The notes below the pieces were generated by a model that was not told the origin of the DNA, made no database searches, and worked only from the letters and a program-made list of their open reading frames with translations. From a virus (taxonomy: Duplodnaviria; Heunggongvirae; Uroviricota; Caudoviricetes), in IMG/VR virus record IMGVR_UViG_3300028453_000031: 18,658 nt of DNA. The stretch is one strand, 5' to 3'. Below, one piece after another: positions 10,901 through 18,658 of the stretch; the stretch's first letter is position 1; each line of letters opens with the position of its first letter. The translations under genes and the position numbers were made by a program.

Positions 10901-11257
10901 ATGGAAATAAAACCAGAAGATGAGTTAAGCAATATTGTTTTATTTCCGGTAAAAGAGGATGACCCACGTAATCAGGTTAATTTTCTTTATGAGCCATCGG
11001 AAAGACCATACTGCCATCACGCCTCTGTCCGGGTTGACGAAAAAGAGCGCCAGGTCCGATGCAAAATTTGCGGTGCGGTTGTGGAGCCATTTGACTGGAT
11101 GCTCTCAGTGGCGAAAAGAGAAACCAGACTGGCAGATGATGTAAGGCTATTGCGCCAGGAGGAACAGGAAAGGCGAAAAAATATAGAAAAGCTAATTCAG
11201 ATTGAGCGTAACGCGAAAGCGCGGATACGCAGGGCGACAAAATTTAGCCCCGAATAA
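10901..11257 (+). CDS. Hypothetical zinc-ribbon protein
   Basis: GGAGAGGAG before ATG 10901 (track GTG 10844 is in frame but has a weaker context). CHH...CKICG motif. Confidence 0.6.
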   Translation: MEIKPEDELSNIVLFPVKEDDPRNQVNFLYEPSERPYCHHASVRVDEKERQVRCKICGAVVEPFDWMLSVAKRETRLADDVRLLRQEEQERRKNIEKLIQIERNAKARIRRATKFSPE

Positions 11258-11422
11258 TTAACATTATTATCGGAAATAAAATCCTTAACCGGAGGGATTT
11301 CTGCACCCTCAGAACATCAGGAGGCCACCAGAAATGGCGGTAATGAAAAATTAACCAGAGAGCAATTAATCAAAGAAGCCAAATTAAAAATAGCGGTTGC
11401 GAAATGTCACCCCAATTCAGAG

Positions 11423-11689
11423 ATGGCTAGGGTAGAGGGCGAGCTATTCAAAATTGCACTGGCATCGCTGGAAGCAGAACCGGTGGCATATCAGTATCGC
11501 CTGTGGGATGCGGAATATGATGAATGGGGGGAATGGGAAGATTGCGGAGAATGCGCTTACGAAGGATTTGTTGAGGAAGAGAAACTCCAGGGGGCAGCTG
11601 TTCAGACCCGTAAGCTATACGCCACACCGCCAGTGCCGGTAGTGCCGGAATTTGAAACATGGTTTAACAGCCAGGAGTCAGGGAGATAA
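11423..11689 (+). CDS. Hypothetical acidic protein
   Basis: 88-aa ORF in the same orientation and operon context; weak RBS. Confidence 0.5.
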   Translation: MARVEGELFKIALASLEAEPVAYQYRLWDAEYDEWGEWEDCGECAYEGFVEEEKLQGAAVQTRKLYATPPVPVVPEFETWFNSQESGR

Positions 11690-11692
11690 ATC

Positions 11693-12193
11693 ATGATTAA
11701 TCGTACTAAACTGGAGCACATCCTCGAATATGCCAGGCAGCAGAGGCATATTGGTCAGCATTGTAAAATTCCAGCAGGAGATATGGTTGAAATCGTGGAG
11801 ATTGCCATGTGTAAGACTGGTAACTCTCAGGTAATTCCAGATGAGGTGCTGTCAGCAATTATGAAGGTAGTCAGGATTCGTACCGACTTTGCCGATTTTG
11901 ACGGTGACAGGCGAGGTATCGGTGATTGTCTGGATGAGTCTGAGCAAGAGCTTATCGTTACCATTAACAAATATGCCAGTCAGTTGGTAGTGGAACCGGT
12001 AGTACCTGATGAAGAACGGGAACAGACAGTCACGCCGCCAACACCTGGTAACCAGATTAACGAATTAACCATGTTGGTTAAGCGATTAGCCAGTTCGCTA
12101 AAAAGCGTCAATAAATCAAGCAAGCTACCTGATAAAGCGATGGAATATCTGAAGCAGAACGGACTGGTTGGTGTGGAGGATATTTTACGATGA
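11693..12193 (+). CDS. Hypothetical protein
   Basis: GGAG-rich Shine-Dalgarno before ATG 11693; 166-aa ORF; stop overlaps the next small ORF start (ATGA). Confidence 0.65.
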   Translation: MINRTKLEHILEYARQQRHIGQHCKIPAGDMVEIVEIAMCKTGNSQVIPDEVLSAIMKVVRIRTDFADFDGDRRGIGDCLDESEQELIVTINKYASQLVVEPVVPDEEREQTVTPPTPGNQINELTMLVKRLASSLKSVNKSSKLPDKAMEYLKQNGLVGVEDILR

Positions 12194-12422: not shown

Positions 12423-12656
12423 ATATGGGAATTCCCATATTGGGCAAAAACGGTTTGCTGTAAAGCGAGAGTTAAGTAGAATTGCTGCGGGTGCTTGAGG
12501 CTGTCTGCCTCGGGCATGCCGCCGTAAGGCAGACAGAGAAAAGCCCCAGTTAACATAACGCGTCCTGCAAGACGCTTAACATTAATCTGAGGCCCAATCT
12601 ATGTCTCACAAATGTAGGTTAGCCTCTTACGTGCCGAAGGCAAGGAGAAGCAGGCT
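12423..12656 (+). promoter_or_regulatory. hok mRNA leader region with strong secondary structure; expected location of the antisense (sok-like) RNA
   Basis: 18-bp perfect palindrome ATATGGGAATTCCCATAT (12423-12440); 10-bp perfect stem CTGTCTGCCT / AGGCAGACAG (12501-12510 and 12527-12536); short leader ORF 12601-12660 ending in ATGA at the hok start. Confidence 0.45.
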
Positions 12657-12812
12657 ATGAAGCAGCAAAAGGCGACGTTAATCGCCCTGATCGTCATCTG
12701 TTTAACCGTCATAGTGACGGCACTGGTAACGAGGAAAGACCTCTGCGAGGTACGAATCCGAACCGGCCAGACGGAGGTCGCTGTTTTCACAGTCTACGAA
12801 CCTGAGGAGTAA
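12657..12812 (+). CDS. hok: Hok/Gef family type I toxin
   Basis: 51-aa product MKQQKATLIALIVICLTVIVTALVTRKDLCEVRIRTGQTEVAVFTVYEPEE matches the Hok family pattern (TM helix then TRK.LCE.R.R.G..EVA....YE). AAGGAG 9 nt upstream. Confidence 0.85.
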   Translation: MKQQKATLIALIVICLTVIVTALVTRKDLCEVRIRTGQTEVAVFTVYEPEE

Positions 12813-14316: not shown

Positions 14317-14553
14317 ATGACCGAACGCATAGAATTTGTTTTGCCTTACCCGCCAACGGTGAACACTTACTGGCGACGTCGTGACCTGGACAACATTCTG
14401 AAAGCGCCACTGGATGCGCTGACGCATGCAGGACTACTTATCGACGACGAGCAGTTTGATGAAATTAATATTGTGCGCGGTCTGCCTGTTCCTGGCGGAC
14501 GGCTTGGTGTGAAAATTTACGAAATAACGCATGGCGGGCAGGCAAAAGAATGA
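14317..14553 (+). CDS. rusA: RusA-family Holliday junction resolvase with apparent internal in-frame deletion (78 aa versus ~120 aa)
   Basis: N-terminus LPYPPTVNTYW and C-terminal part RRRDLDNILKAPLDALTHAGLLIDDEQ...GGRLGVKIYEI align to RusA as I recall it; about 40 central residues are absent. ATGA coupling at both ends. Confidence 0.65.
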   Translation: MTERIEFVLPYPPTVNTYWRRRDLDNILKAPLDALTHAGLLIDDEQFDEINIVRGLPVPGGRLGVKIYEITHGGQAKE

Positions 14554-15371
14554 AACTGGAAGATTTACCAAAATACTATTCCCCAAAATCACCGGGTCTG
14601 ACGGATGCATCGGCCTCAACGTCAAAAGATGCGCTGAGTATCACTGATGTGATGGCAGCGCAGGGCATGACACAGAATCGGGCTGAGATGGGGTTTTCTG
14701 CGTTCCTTGGGAAAATGGGCATTAGTATGAATGACAGAGAGCGGGCAACAGAATTGCTGACAGAATATGCACTCAGTCGGTGTGATCGCGTGGCGGCGTT
14801 AAGAAAACTCCCGGCAGAAATAAAACCGGCAGTGATGCGTATTATGGCTTCGTATGCGTTTGAAGATTATGCCCGTAGCGCGGCGAGCAAAAAACAGTGC
14901 CCCTGCTGTCACGGAAAAAAATTTATTGAAAGCGAGGTTTTTACAAACAAGATCCAGTATCCGGATGGTAAGCCGCCAGTGTGGGCAAAGTGCACAAAAG
15001 GCGTGTATCCGTCTTACTGGGAGGAATGGAAAAAAGTCAGGGAGGTGGTAAAAGTTGCCTGTCCGGAGTGTGGAGGGAAGGGAGAGGTATCCACTGCCTG
15101 TAAAGATTGTCGTGGGCGCGGTGTTGCCATTCATCGTGAAGAGTCGGAAAAACAGGGTGTGCCGGTTTTCAGAAACTGTCAGCGTTGTGGTGGGCGTGGC
15201 TATGAAAGATTACCTTCAACGGAGGCATTTAATGCCATATGTAATGTAACCGATGCCATATCTCTTGATACATGGAAAAAAACAGTTAAACGTTTTTACG
15301 ATACGCTGGTGGTGCAGTTTGATATTGAAGAAGCATGGGCAGAACAACAACTGAAAAAGGTGACCAGATAG
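14550..15371 (+). CDS. Late-gene antiterminator Q-like protein (multi-CxxC zinc binding)
   Basis: Position after rusA and before the late promoter and tRNAs. SPKSP...TDVMAAQGM N-terminal pattern and several CxxC pairs. Family assignment is from memory of Q-type proteins. Confidence 0.65.
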   Translation: MKLEDLPKYYSPKSPGLTDASASTSKDALSITDVMAAQGMTQNRAEMGFSAFLGKMGISMNDRERATELLTEYALSRCDRVAALRKLPAEIKPAVMRIMASYAFEDYARSAASKKQCPCCHGKKFIESEVFTNKIQYPDGKPPVWAKCTKGVYPSYWEEWKKVREVVKVACPECGGKGEVSTACKDCRGRGVAIHREESEKQGVPVFRNCQRCGGRGYERLPSTEAFNAICNVTDAISLDTWKKTVKRFYDTLVVQFDIEEAWAEQQLKKVTR

Positions 15372-15944: not shown

Positions 15945-17003
15945 ATGTTTAATACTGTAAAAATATCCAGTTGTGAGTTGATCAACGCTGACTGCCTGGA
16001 ATTTATCCGGTCGTTACCCGAAAATTCTGTTGACCTGATAGTCACGGACCCGCCGTCCTTTAAAGTGAAGCCTGAGGGCTGGGATAACCAGTGGAAGGGC
16101 GACGATGATTACCTGAAATGGCTGGACCAGTGTCTGGCGCAGTTCTGGCGGGTGCTGAAACCTGCCGGAAGTCTTTACCTGTTCTGTGGCCATCGCCTGG
16201 CATCTGACATTGAAATCATGATGCGAGAACGCTTCAGTGTGCTGAACCATATTATCTGGGCGAAGCCGTCCGGACGCTGGAACGGGTGCAACAAGGAAAG
16301 CCTGAGGGCGTATTTCCCCGCCACAGAGCGCATTCTGTTCGCGGAACATTATCAGGGGCCGTATCGTCCGAAAGATGCCGGGTATGAGGCGAAGGGCAGG
16401 GCACTGAAACAGCATGTGATGACACCGCTGATTGCTTACTTTCGTGATGCGCGTGCTGCCCTGGGGATAACGGCAAAACAGATTGCTGATGCCACAGGAA
16501 AGAAAAACATGGTGTCGCACTGGTTCAGTGCCAGTCAGTGGCAGTTACCGAACGAAAGCGATTATCTGAAATTACAGGTGCTGTTTGCCCGGGTGGCAGA
16601 AGAGAAGCATCAGCGGGGTGAACTGGAAAAGCCCCACCACCAGCTGCTGGAGACGTATACTTCACTGAACCGGCAGTATGCGGAACTGCAGAGTGAATAT
16701 AAGCATCTGCGGCGGTATTTTGGCGTGACGGCGCAGATGCCGTACACGGATGTGTGGACGCATAAACCGGTGCAGTACTATCCCGGGAAACATCCGTGCG
16801 AAAAACCGGCAGAAATGCTGCAGCAGATAATCAGCGCGAGCAGTCGTCCGGGTGACCTGGTTGCAGATTTTTTCATGGGGTCGGGTTCGACAGTCAAAGC
16901 CGCGATGGCGCTGGGGCGGCGTGCAACTGGCGTTGAGCTGGAGACTGAACGTTTTGAGCAGACGGTCAGAGAAGTTCAGGATTTAGTCAGTCAGAACGGA
17001 TGA
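15945..17003 (+). CDS. Orphan DNA methyltransferase, beta-class amino-MTase (N6-adenine or N4-cytosine)
   Basis: Motif IV-like LIVTDPPSF near the N-terminus and motif I FFMGSGST near the C-terminus (beta-class order). No adjacent restriction endonuclease gene. Confidence 0.85.
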   Translation: MFNTVKISSCELINADCLEFIRSLPENSVDLIVTDPPSFKVKPEGWDNQWKGDDDYLKWLDQCLAQFWRVLKPAGSLYLFCGHRLASDIEIMMRERFSVLNHIIWAKPSGRWNGCNKESLRAYFPATERILFAEHYQGPYRPKDAGYEAKGRALKQHVMTPLIAYFRDARAALGITAKQIADATGKKNMVSHWFSASQWQLPNESDYLKLQVLFARVAEEKHQRGELEKPHHQLLETYTSLNRQYAELQSEYKHLRRYFGVTAQMPYTDVWTHKPVQYYPGKHPCEKPAEMLQQIISASSRPGDLVADFFMGSGSTVKAAMALGRRATGVELETERFEQTVREVQDLVSQNG

Positions 17004-17043: not shown

Positions 17044-17119
17044 GGCCCTTTAGCTCAGTGGTGAGAGCGAGCGACTCATAATCGCCAGGTCGCTGGTTCA
17101 AATCCAGCAAGGGCCACCA
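17044..17119 (+). tRNA. ileZ: tRNA-Ile (anticodon CAU, lysidine type), ileX/ileZ-like
   Basis: 76 nt, 7-bp acceptor stem GGCCCTT/AAGGGCC, anticodon loop CTCATAA, T-loop TTCAAAT, 3' CCA. Near-identical to E. coli tRNA-Ile2 as I recall it. Confidence 0.85.
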
Positions 17120-17128
17120 TATCACATA

Positions 17129-17205
17129 CCGCCATTAGCTCATCGGGATAGAGCGCCAGCCTTCGAAGCTGGCTGCGCGGGGTTCGAGTCCTCGATGGCG
17201 GTCCA
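17129..17205 (+). tRNA. tRNA-Arg (anticodon UCG)
   Basis: 77 nt, acceptor CCGCCAT/ATGGCGG, D-arm GCTC/GAGC, anticodon stem CCAGC/GCTGG with loop CTTCGAA, T-arm CGGGG-TTCGAGT-CCTCG, 3' CCA. Resembles the rare-codon Arg tRNA (argO-like) of Stx phages. Confidence 0.8.
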
Positions 17206-17483
17206 TTATCTGCATTATGCGTTGTTGGTTCTGATGAGTGAATCATTGTCTTTTGAGCAACAGGCTATCATATAAGATAGCCTCAGACTTCCTTGTTTAT
17301 TCTCGCCGGATGCTTCGTAGATATTTGCAGGCATCTGTATGCAGGGGTATTATTGCGGCATATATCATCCGGAAAAATAAAAACTACATGCTGATCCGGA
17401 GATGATAGTTACAAGTCCTCCCGGATCCCGCATATTTACTATATTTTATAGATAATTGTTCTTGTTAATATGGAGATGGATAA

Positions 17484-17912
17484 ATGTATTGCCGTGCTGT
17501 ACCGGTTCTTGTTTTGATATTAGCCAGTCTGACAACTGGCTGCACAAAAGATGTATCGACAAATAATCATGATGCTTCTCTGTATCACTCAGATAAATTA
17601 ATAAAGTCGCAAAATTTGAGCTCATCGGAACGTACCCCTGATGCCAGTGAAGAAATCCGGCAGTATGCCATTCAGGTCAGGAAAGCCATAGAAGAACAGT
17701 TAAAGGATGCGAGTAAGTATTCAGGAAAAGAGTGTTCACTGAGAATGTATATGGCCCCGAATGGTCTTCTGCTACAGGTTAAAAGAGAAAGCGGTGATCC
17801 CGATTTATGTCGTGAAGCGATGAATGCAGTAAAGAATGCTGATATACCATCACCACCGTCTTCAGGAGTATATAAAGCATTTAGAAATGGCGTGCTGGAT
17901 TTTAAACTCTGA
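17484..17912 (+). CDS. Lipoprotein with TolA C-terminal domain (domain III)-like mature region; moron candidate
   Basis: Signal peptide with lipobox LTTGC. Residues ~57-142 (YAIQVRKAIEEQLKDASKYSGKECSLRMYMAPNGLLLQVKRESGDPDLCREAMNAVKNADIPSPPSSGVYKAFRNGVLDFKL) align with the TolA C-terminal domain, including both cysteines. GGAG 8 nt upstream; markedly AT-rich gene and flanks. Confidence 0.8.
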   Translation: MYCRAVPVLVLILASLTTGCTKDVSTNNHDASLYHSDKLIKSQNLSSSERTPDASEEIRQYAIQVRKAIEEQLKDASKYSGKECSLRMYMAPNGLLLQVKRESGDPDLCREAMNAVKNADIPSPPSSGVYKAFRNGVLDFKL

Positions 17913-17942
17913 CAGGGGGAGAAGATTTTCTCCTGTCCTGAT
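17913..17942 (+). terminator. Hairpin after the lipoprotein gene (weak terminator candidate)
   Basis: GACAGGGGGAGAA...TTCTCCTGTC imperfect inverted repeat directly after the stop. Confidence 0.35.
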
Positions 17943-18202
17943 GATTTTGGGGCGCTGGAAAGATATTGTGCTGTGAAGTGTTAAATCCCTCACAATTCAG
18001 TAAGTTGACAGTTGCCTGTCAGACTGAGCATTTGTTAAAAAAATTTCGCATGGTGAATCCCCCTGTGCGGAGGGGCGACTGGTGAACGGTATGATCTCTT
18101 TGATGATCGTAAGCGAGAATACGCGGGTTTGGTGTCACCGGGCTGAACTCACCGGGAGGCACCCGGCACCATGCTCATGGTGATACAGAAATGCGGCTTC
18201 AG

Positions 18203-18228
18203 CCCCTCTCCGGAGGGGCTTTCTTATG
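18203..18228 (+). terminator. Rho-independent terminator (plus strand)
   Basis: GCCCCTC-TCCG-GAGGGGC perfect 7-bp stem followed by TTTCTTAT. Confidence 0.5.
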
Positions 18229-18232
18229 GACA

Positions 18233-18261
18233 AAAAAAGCCCGCGCTGGGAGACGCGGGCG
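18233..18261 (-). terminator. Rho-independent terminator (minus strand)
   Basis: GCCCGCG...CGCGGGC stem preceded on the plus strand by A7, i.e. a U-run on the minus strand. Confidence 0.5.
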
Positions 18262-18382
18262 GCAAGGAATAAACAATAAAACGTGAAGTAATACTTCAAC
18301 TGGCGAATAATACCCGACAGTAATCACTCTGCGCAATAGCGTGGCCTTTTTCGAATTGCGGGCTGTAGTCTCCCTTCTGCCG

Positions 18383-18543
18383 GGTGTCCTGGTTGCAGAT
18401 TTCTTCATGGGGTAGGGTTCGGCAGTTAAAGCAGCGATGGCGCTGGGGCGTCGTGCAACTGGCGTTGAGCTGGATACCGGGCGTTTTGAACAGACTGCGC
18501 AGGAAATCAGGGATGTATTTAGCGGGAGCGCTTTGCAGAAGTA
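18383..18543 (+). pseudogene. Degenerate duplicate of the methyltransferase 3' end (motif I region) with an in-frame stop
   Basis: Aligns to 16851-17003: CTGGTTGCAGATTTCTTCATGGGGTAGGGTTCGGCAGTTAAAGC versus CTGGTTGCAGATTTTTTCATGGGGTCGGGTTCGACAGTCAAAGC. Encodes LVADFFMG*GSAVKAAMALGRRATGVELDTGRFEQT... with TAG replacing TCG. Confidence 0.7.
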
Positions 18544-18658
18544 ATCTCCCAAAATGCCATTTTTGGAATATACTGGTATTAAGTCTTTTTGCTCAGGTTA
18601 ATTCAAAATGGATGTTGCCTGCTCTGTGGTCCTGATTCGCTATCCGATAGATATTTTT

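Follow-up and report, generated by a model that had tools for sequence, protein, structure and literature searches.

A full-length STnc100-family RNA and a truncated EcOnc08/21/42-type convergent partner gene behind a moron gene in a lambdoid prophage

We analyze a spacer (positions 17943-18300) in a stretch of viral DNA of 18,658 nucleotides (Caudoviricetes; IMG/VR record IMGVR_UViG_3300028453_000031), hereafter referred to in its entirety as the window. Most probably, the spacer is one copy of a convergent sRNA module that, in the late operon of lambdoid and Stx prophages, directly follows the moron gene. On the plus strand it encodes a full-length representative of the STnc100 family, and the minus strand carries the 3′ part of a second known sRNA gene, of the EcOnc08/21/42 type, which a recombination junction has severed from its native 5′ end and promoter. 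The initial annotation of this DNA had proposed that the spacer could encode a small RNA or simply insulate the cassette. The small-RNA reading is borne out by the covarying fold of the plus-strand RNA and by a minus-strand terminator that ends a second known Hfq-binding sRNA, with the amendment that there are two convergent sRNA genes instead of one.

The window is the late region of a lambdoid prophage. It contains a match to sok RNA (12489-12662; hokD is annotated next to the sok match in locus L001), a gene of Q antiterminator type (14550-15371; Pfam Antiterm, 5.3e-52) with a DUF968 gene between sok and Q, a DNA methyltransferase gene (15945-17003), a tRNA(CAT) followed by a tRNA-Arg (17044-17205), and, in the moron slot, a lipoprotein gene (17484-17912) encoding 142 aa with a C-terminal TolA domain. 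The spacer is flanked as previously described, by the lipoprotein gene upstream and a DNA methyltransferase fragment downstream. In a matching genome of identical sequence, an HTH gene, four tandem STnc100 copies, a SASA esterase gene, a holin gene and a lysozyme gene are found past the end of the window. The STnc100 copy in the spacer is thus placed in the late region downstream of Q and the moron, with esterase, holin and lysozyme genes further downstream in the identical genome. In Stx phages, matches to the STnc100 model lie 75-85 nt after stx2B or stx1B, so the TolA-like lipoprotein gene occupies the moron slot that is taken by stx in those phages. The family is also often found in tandem arrays ahead of lysis genes.

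The spacer is unusually rich in perfect inverted repeats. The four repeats of the initial annotation and its TTGACA hexamer were all found, at offsets of 1-3 nt at most: TGACAG/CTGTCA at 18006-18011 and 18016-18021 (previously 18006-18023), CCCCT/AGGGG at 18060-18064 and 18071-18075 (previously 18058-18075), GCCCCTC/GAGGGGC at 18202-18208 and 18213-18219, which lengthens to an 8-bp stem at 18201-18220, (A)GCCCCTC/GAGGGGC(T), GCCCGCG/CGCGGGC at 18239-18245 and 18254-18260, and TTGACA at 18005-18010, exactly as given before. Three further perfect hairpins had escaped notice: CCGGG/CCCGG (18152-18166), CACCAT/ATGGTG (18167-18182) and TGAAGT/ACTTCA (18284-18298). We count 15, 8 and 3 perfect stems of at least 5, 6 and 7 bp, respectively, against 3.4, 0.8 and 0.2 after dinucleotide shuffling (500 shuffles). 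For minimum lengths of 5 and 6 bp, the enrichment is therefore 4-10 times, and none of the 500 shuffles reached the observed counts; the count for at least 7 bp was reached by 0.4% of shuffles. The last two of the previously described repeats had been interpreted as back-to-back terminators, and a consensus terminator scan agrees, calling one terminator per strand in a tail-to-tail arrangement, at 18201-18220 on the plus strand (tail TTCTTATGGA) and at 18260-18239 on the minus strand (tail TTTTTTTGTC), with the two U-tails ending ~3 nt apart.

The identity of the plus-strand RNA follows from an Rfam scan of the whole window, an analysis that had been suggested along with the initial annotation. 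STnc100 (RF02076) matches 18019-18231 on the plus strand with 172.4 bits (gathering score 47, E = 1.2e-39), and the match is not truncated, spanning model positions 1-206 of 206. Our own covariance model (R1) scores the window copy at 226 bits, and the folding z-score of the 18019-18231 RNA is -2.2. The CCCCT/AGGGG hairpin and the terminator at 18201-18220 are internal parts of the STnc100 RNA.

The consensus helices of the family, i.e., the closing helix, the 5′ C-rich hairpin, two 3′ hairpins and the terminator, are all perfect or near perfect in the window. The structured core (18048-18174), whose helices appear in both the Rfam consensus structure and the RNAalifold consensus, is a multi-branch fold closed by H1, an 8-bp long-range helix in which GCAUGGUG (18048-18055) pairs with CACCAUGC (18167-18174). 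Within it lie the 5′ hairpin CCCCU/AGGGG (18060-18075), which is the second repeat of the initial annotation, a variable central region (18080-18124), the hairpin GGGUUUGG/CUGAACUC (18125-18150) and the hairpin CCGGG/CCCGG (18152-18166). The core is followed by a variable single-stranded linker, UCAUGGUGAUACAGAAAUGCGGCUUC (18175-18200), and by the intrinsic terminator (18201-18228), in which the stem AGCCCCUC/GAGGGGCU encloses the loop UCCG and is followed by UUUCUUAU. The aligned family members hardly differ in the core, and variation is greatest in the central loop and in the linker, the latter being the least conserved segment at 28-46% identity. This combination of a conserved core and a variable linker fits a conserved scaffold that bears a variable target-recognition segment.

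The fold was examined by aligning ten copies, deriving an RNAalifold consensus, and building from the alignment a covariance model that was used to search the window, eight related loci and 91 viral-contig loci fetched by a 17-mer of the CCGGG hairpin, giving 93 distinct matches. The initial annotation had reasoned that hairpins lacking covariation or conservation among related sequences would speak against its reading; instead, covariation across the 93 distinct homologues is strong. Of all cells, 96.5% are paired, and in 25 of the 33 pairs both partners have changed. The fold has a covariation score of 0.353 versus a shuffle mean of 0.134, no shuffle out of 500 scored as high, and versions of the structure slid by 1-3 columns scored ~0.05, about 7 times lower. 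The signal is carried by the closing helix, the GGGUU hairpin and the terminator, all 7 modelled pairs of which show compensatory changes, with 98.8% of cells paired. The CCGGG/CCCGG hairpin served as the search anchor, so its invariance within this set is uninformative, but the independently built Rfam consensus also shows it to be highly conserved. The near-invariance of the core among copies could partly reflect recent spread rather than selection on the RNA. The compensatory double changes in 25 of the 33 pairs, which argue for selection on RNA structure, speak against recent spread as the sole cause. A separate scan of the genome collection with the 14-mer ATGGTGAATCCCCC returned almost solely chance matches in unrelated phyla. 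It also returned two enterobacterial loci; the one from Atlantibacter (L061) is a true STnc100 copy (83.5 bits), and the one from Phytobacter (L058) proved not to be one in the covariance-model search.

Close relatives of the plus-strand RNA have been characterized in EHEC, including EcOnc27, also known as sRNA103, which follows stx2B (Sp5/933W), EcOnc05 (Sp4), EcOnc04, EcOnc06 and EcOnc13. They have the same helices and terminator as the window copy and occupy the same slot, immediately behind the moron gene on the 3′ side of Q/PR′. The window copy differs from them in being a distinct mosaic variant behind the gene of a lipoprotein with a TolA C-terminal domain, and not behind stx. EcOnc27 is detected at ~235/247 nt and binds Hfq, as do its relatives, and its 247-nt form is destabilized in a delta-hfq background (Tree et al. 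2014). In our alignment, the EcOnc27 Northern probe sits on the linker of the Stx2-phage copy (phage Sp5). In strain EDL933, STnc100_4 was positive on Northern blots, and 10 of 11 copies had RNA-seq reads in the hundreds to thousands (PMC5331693). Overexpression of sRNA103 raises espA and fimZ, apparently indirectly, and STnc100 variants beside stx2 have been statistically linked to clinical outcome.

A more distant comparison is offered by PasD1 and PasD2 of EPEC E2348/69 (Pearl Mizrahi et al. 2021), which are Hfq-dependent, have RIL-seq targets and carry their seed in the linker 5′ of the terminator. They share with the window copy its prophage context, the H1 helix, the GAAUCC..GGAGGGGC hairpin and a second hairpin, followed by a linker and a terminator. 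However, they match our STnc100 model only distantly (38 bits versus 226 bits), and the H6 hairpin is replaced by a long insertion. A common origin of PasD and STnc100 has been proposed (Zhu, Shabalina and Storz 2026 preprint). In the alignment, the PasD seed UGUGAG falls on the window linker, which differs in sequence and lacks the seed. By the position of this seed, the linker at 18175-18200 is a candidate target-pairing region.

Upstream of the core, the STnc100 unit has a conserved leader (17981-18047, plus strand) that holds one or more promoters, the 5′ part of the RNA, or both. Its motifs are TTAAAT (17981-17986), CTCACAATTCAG (17989-18000), the TTGACA hexamer (18005-18010) with the overlapping TGACAG/CTGTCA hairpin (18006-18021), TTGCCT (18012-18017), and TTAAAA with an A7 tract (18035-18043), and the general pattern can be written as TTAAAT-N2-CTCACAATTCAG-N4-TTGAC-N-GTTGYCTG ... 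GTTAAAA. Among 81 distinct homologues, unrelated in the rest of their upstream sequence, 25-34 have these motifs at fixed distances from the core, and 19 of 25 leader-bearing copies begin right after another terminator. A consensus sigma-70 scan returned no promoter for either the plus-strand or the minus-strand RNA. TTGACA has no acceptable consensus -10 element at 16-18 nt, is not conserved outside the closest STnc100 subfamily, and is deleted in Stx1-phage copies. The TGACAG/CTGTCA hairpin was rejected as an RNA structural element, since it is not maintained outside that subfamily. Wrong spacing led us to drop two other readings, CTGGAAAG..TGTGCT as a sigma-54 element and TGTGAA..CTCACA as a CRP-like site.

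Two candidate 5′ ends can be considered, as the Rfam boundary at 18019 is the edge of the model and not a mapped end. The Northern sizes of relatives (~235/247 nt for EcOnc27 and ~222 nt for EcOnc05) fit a start near 17992, which would place the TGACAG hairpin inside the RNA. On the other hand, the 5′ end of PasD1 as defined by RNA-seq is the first G of the closing helix, equivalent to window position 18048, which lies downstream of TTGCCT (18012-18017), a 17-nt spacer and TTAAAA (18035-18040). Neither candidate promoter, for the start near 17992 or for that near 18048, passes the consensus scan. The two starts conflict, leaving the length of the plus-strand RNA ambiguous between ~180 nt (from 18048) and ~236 nt (from 17992).

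On the opposite strand, the intrinsic terminator (18260-18232) consists of a stem running from 18260 to 18239 (GCCCGCGU/GCGCGGGC) and a U7 run from 18238 to 18232. Each variant type retains a perfect GC stem of 6-8 bp followed by T6-T9; the covariation in this terminator is weak, with 2 pairs changed on both sides in an alignment that is sensitive to register. Immediately 5′ of the stem (18267 to 18261) is CCUUGCC, a seed complementary to GGCAAGG that is identical in the window, EPEC, Sakai Sp4 and phage Stx2_12E129. The minus-strand gene body spans 18232-18391, over which blastn (160 nt) gives 92.5% identity to Sakai Sp4 and 93.8% to Stx2_12E129. Across EcOnc08, EcOnc21 and EcOnc42 of EHEC Sakai and the EPEC sRNA of the same type, identity to the minus arm is 92-94% over 150-160 nt, with the same terminator, the same seed and the same tail-to-tail position against an STnc100 copy. 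In addition, the EcOnc08/21/42 Northern probe of Tree et al. matches the plus strand of the window at 18306-18340 in 34 of 35 positions, so the RNA it detects is the minus-strand one.

The convergent arrangement itself has precedent. A "convergent sRNA pair" at the moron insertion site has been described for eight Sakai prophages (Tree et al. 2014, PMC4104026; review PMC7873438), and in Sakai Sp4 the Hfq-CRAC peaks EcOnc08 and EcOnc21 directly follow an STnc100 copy whose own peak is EcOnc05 (Tree et al. 2014). In the window, the plus-strand terminator (18201-18228) and its minus-strand counterpart lie between the moron coding sequence and the next conserved phage ORF. Of 134 distinct STnc100 copies, only 25 are accompanied by a convergent minus-strand partner. 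The homologue in EPEC E2348/69, E2348C_1409.E2348C_1408.IGR, was reported as a new sRNA of 182 nt and noted as a homologue of EcOnc08/21/42 (PMC8550237 supplements). Its RIL-seq partners include the leaders of cfa (767 chimeras) and dppA (197 chimeras), and tir and emrA are among its motif-bearing target sites, the target motif being GGCAAGG/GGCAGGG (PMC8550237). Targets of RNAs of this type are known from interactome data only.

A different minus-strand family fills the same position in other phages: STnc100 of Stx2 phage I faces AsxR (RF02703, 88 bits) on the opposite strand, with 1 nt between their ends. AsxR, AgvB and EcOnc03 (RF02703, RF02702) share with the minus arm of the window the slot, the orientation and a build of variable 5′ part plus terminator. 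The AsxR and AgvB models, however, have no match at E <= 1 in 17200-18658, with the same tool that gives AsxR its 88 bits in Stx2 phage I; the window lacks the 42-nt 3′ region conserved in the two RNAs (GUAUCUCAUGC.AUUGCCCGAACCCAYUCGGGC), and the terminator sequence is also different. We therefore reject an AsxR/AgvB identity for the minus arm. The minus-strand Rfam matches to OmrA-B (20 bits) and anti-hemB (19 bits) were likewise set aside, being far under threshold and reflecting a generic hairpin-plus-U-tail shape.

The minus-strand gene is cut off on its 5′ side. The methyltransferase fragment downstream starts at 18380 (18380-18495, plus strand) and copies the 3′ end portion of the methyltransferase gene further upstream (16848-16963, 89.7%), as shown by alignment and by a blastn comparison of the end of the window with the window itself and with related loci. 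The sRNA block and this fragment overlap by 12 nt (18380-18391), which marks a recombination junction. Homology to Sp4, EPEC PP6 and Stx2_12E129 ends at 18391, from where the sequence of these three runs on into the ribosome-binding site of an esterase-like gene. The EPEC 5′ end maps ~30 nt past this point of divergence, so that the window falls ~30 nt short of it and well short of the ~271-nt Sakai species. The window copy has therefore lost its native promoter: a complete EcOnc08/21/42 transcription unit would include the native 5′ end and the promoter beside the esterase gene, both of which are absent from the window.

A shorter minus-strand transcript is conceivable. A candidate internal promoter with conserved hexamers, TTGCGC (18336 to 18331) and TATTAT (18312 to 18307) separated by 18 nt, could yield a transcript of ~70 nt (18301 to 18232), which is predicted to consist of a 5′ hairpin, a U-rich linker, the seed and the terminator, and which has a folding z-score of -4.65. 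The 5′ hairpin (18298 to 18284) has its 6 bp in the window copy only and contains a mismatch in most relatives. As the published probe overlies this putative promoter, the characterized long form starts upstream of it.

Both arms of the module are common. Among 5426 complete E. coli genomes, 2729 have the plus arm, in as many as 10-11 copies each, and 995 have the minus arm. The window variant occurs in identical form in ~80 genomes, mostly of non-O157 STEC; its identity is ~86-87% to the best copies from O157:H7 and 91.7% to the closest phage record. Its sequence is mosaic, with a leader resembling that of Stx2 phages, a central region resembling that of the Stx1 phages CP-1639 and Ss-VASD, and a 3′ part resembling that of Stx2_12E129.

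By analogy with EcOnc27/sRNA103, EcOnc05 and PasD, the plus-strand RNA would most likely be an Hfq-bound trans-acting regulator, if the window copy is expressed as its relatives are. Base pairing with host or prophage mRNAs would fall to its variable linker, and stability and a scaffold for protein binding to its conserved core. The minus strand carries the 3′ 150-160 nt of an EcOnc08/21/42-type sRNA, with seed and U7 terminator, that may act on GGCAAGG sites if expressed; its expression would require either that the internal TTGCGC-18-TATTAT promoter works or that transcription enters from the methyltransferase fragment. The tail-to-tail terminators may in addition stop ordinary transcription from both sides, insulating the moron and the downstream genes in the lysogen, and Q-modified polymerase from PR′ would read through both of them. 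Insulation is thus a plausible side effect of the terminators.

A reading close to the second half of the original proposal, namely that the module is mainly a transcriptional insulator with short RNAs as by-products, deserves the most attention among the alternatives, although we consider it the less probable reading by some distance. According to this explanation, the terminators, together with those of the tandem STnc100 copies downstream, shield the lysis genes from the moron and tRNA promoters and the moron from antisense transcription. The two strong unidirectional terminators only ~3 nt apart, the start of most leader-bearing copies right after another terminator, the arrays of 3-5 terminator-bearing STnc100 units just upstream of esterase and holin genes, and the constant location of the module between moron and lysis cassette are all consistent with it. 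However, a terminator requires only ~30 nt, which leaves unexplained a 130-nt multi-branch core with compensatory changes far from the terminator, as well as the Hfq binding and RIL-seq partners of the homologues and the conserved seed of the minus-strand RNA. The insulator and sRNA roles are compatible and not mutually exclusive.

It seems unlikely that the conserved blocks are chiefly recombination linkers for the swapping of cargo cassettes at moron boundaries, with any RNA function secondary. The mosaic make-up of the window copy from Stx2-phage, Stx1-phage and Stx2_12E129 segments would fit such a role, as would the presence of the same module behind stx2, stx1, tRNAs or a TolA-like gene in different phages, the junction at the edge of the module, and the high number of copies per genome. 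Yet recombination substrates need identity and not base pairing, whereas most pairs of the fold have changed in a compensatory manner, and the homologues are abundant, discrete, Hfq-bound transcripts.

There is a similarly small chance that the nearly invariant STnc100 core, with its closing helix and the hairpins GAAUCCCCCUGUGCGGAGGGGC and CCGGGAGGCACCCGG, is more than a stabilizing scaffold of an Hfq sRNA and has a dedicated and as yet undescribed role in the late operon, either as a structural switch or by specifically binding a factor of the phage or the host that is not Hfq. Two features make a switch conceivable: the 5′ hairpin and the terminator, at 88% identity, are able to pair with one another, and the local CACCAU/AUGGUG hairpin competes with the closing helix.

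Finally, a small protein encoded instead of or besides an RNA regulator is highly improbable: ribosome footprints on some EDL933 STnc100 copies, with coverage values up to 3.2 (PMC5331693), and several ORFs of 31-54 codons in the window could be cited for it, but we reject the protein-coding reading, and uphold the earlier statement that the spacer holds no credible ORF, because its six small ORFs have no Pfam match at the family threshold (the sole listed match scores 14.5 bits against a cut-off of 27, E = 0.027), no frame is open throughout the 93 distinct homologues or through either conserved core (the shortest stop-free stretch is 4-16 codons in each measurable frame), the indels of the central region are not multiples of three, and RefSeq annotates no gene over the spacer in a genome that is 100% identical across it.

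We thus favor the convergent sRNA module as the explanation of the spacer. Both of its RNAs belong to already described families, present in between one fifth and one half of the complete E. coli genomes, and among the prophage sRNA families of pathogenic E. coli, STnc100 ranks with the most abundant. In published work, no direct target has been established for any member of STnc100 proper, the reported effects coming from overexpression and being apparently indirect, and a single further copy adds nothing new on targets. The present copy stands apart only in following a TolA-like moron and in having a truncated minus-strand gene. For annotation, the hypothetical-protein calls over the module in several phage records are probably spurious, and the value of the finding is in recognizing that this prophage bears the sRNA module that is found behind stx in Shiga-toxin phages.

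Directly 3' of the methyltransferase gene, the window carries two tRNA genes, tRNA(CAT) and tRNA-Arg(TCG), at 17044-17205; the former is named tRNA-Ile by RefSeq but tRNA-Met by ARAGORN. Their counterparts in Stx phages are ileZ and argN, whereas argO (TCT), the third tRNA of Stx2 phages and of the Sakai prophage Sp4, is missing from the window. The gene at 17484-17912 encodes a putative lipoprotein of 142 aa in which Pfam identifies a TolA C-terminal domain (5.7e-23); the product is named “cell envelope integrity protein TolA” in RefSeq, and it holds exactly the moron slot, the cargo position of the late operon, that stxAB occupies in Shiga-toxin phages. At 12489-12662, in the early-right region of the prophage, an Rfam match (108.9 bits) identifies sok, the antitoxin RNA of a type I toxin-antitoxin locus of the hok/sok type.

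The sequence at 18380-18495 is an 89.7% copy of 16848-16963, the 3' part of the intact methyltransferase gene 1.5 kb upstream. This fragment overlaps the sRNA block by 12 nt (18380-18391) and no longer matches the intact gene past 18495. Judged from the sequence, the join between the fragment and the sRNA block looks like a scar from the recombination of two late regions.

In the E. coli RM10466 locus, past the position of the window's 3' end, STnc100 occurs four times in tandem, repeating every ~260-270 nt (locus positions 11049-12136). Between this array and a SASA esterase gene lies a second EcOnc08-like element, which is just 5' of the esterase gene. Tandem arrays of 3-5 STnc100 copies also occur in several viral contigs (e.g., L200, L147, and L163). 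“Hypothetical protein” genes are annotated over the module of STnc100 and the minus-strand sRNA in several deposited phage genomes, namely in phage CP-1639 (2522-2845 of the extracted locus) and in the records H26, H28, H31, H32, and H58; these calls are probably spurious, because a conserved reading frame is absent. In prophage PP6 of EPEC E2348/69, the STnc100 copy opposite the RIL-seq-validated minus-strand sRNA (1321-1497 of that locus) has an incomplete 5' hairpin and a closing helix that is missing its 5' arm, and it adjoins an IS4-family (ISEc13) transposase gene. The degenerate member of the pair in this strain is the plus arm.

Within the window copy of STnc100, the 5' hairpin (18060-18076) and the terminator (18203-18219) form an 88% direct repeat, and therefore the arms of each can pair with the other hairpin, as a 22-nt inverted repeat that is 73% complementary. 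The long-range closing helix shares its 3' arm with a local perfect hairpin, CACCAT-gctc-ATGGTG (18167-18182), which would compete with it. The copy in phage Stx2_12E129 has this hairpin, as does the window, whereas the Sp4 and CP-1639 copies are without it. The minimum-energy fold of a 240-nt version of STnc100 adopts the cross-pairing between 5' hairpin and terminator, and this prediction suggests that STnc100 may be a structural switch.
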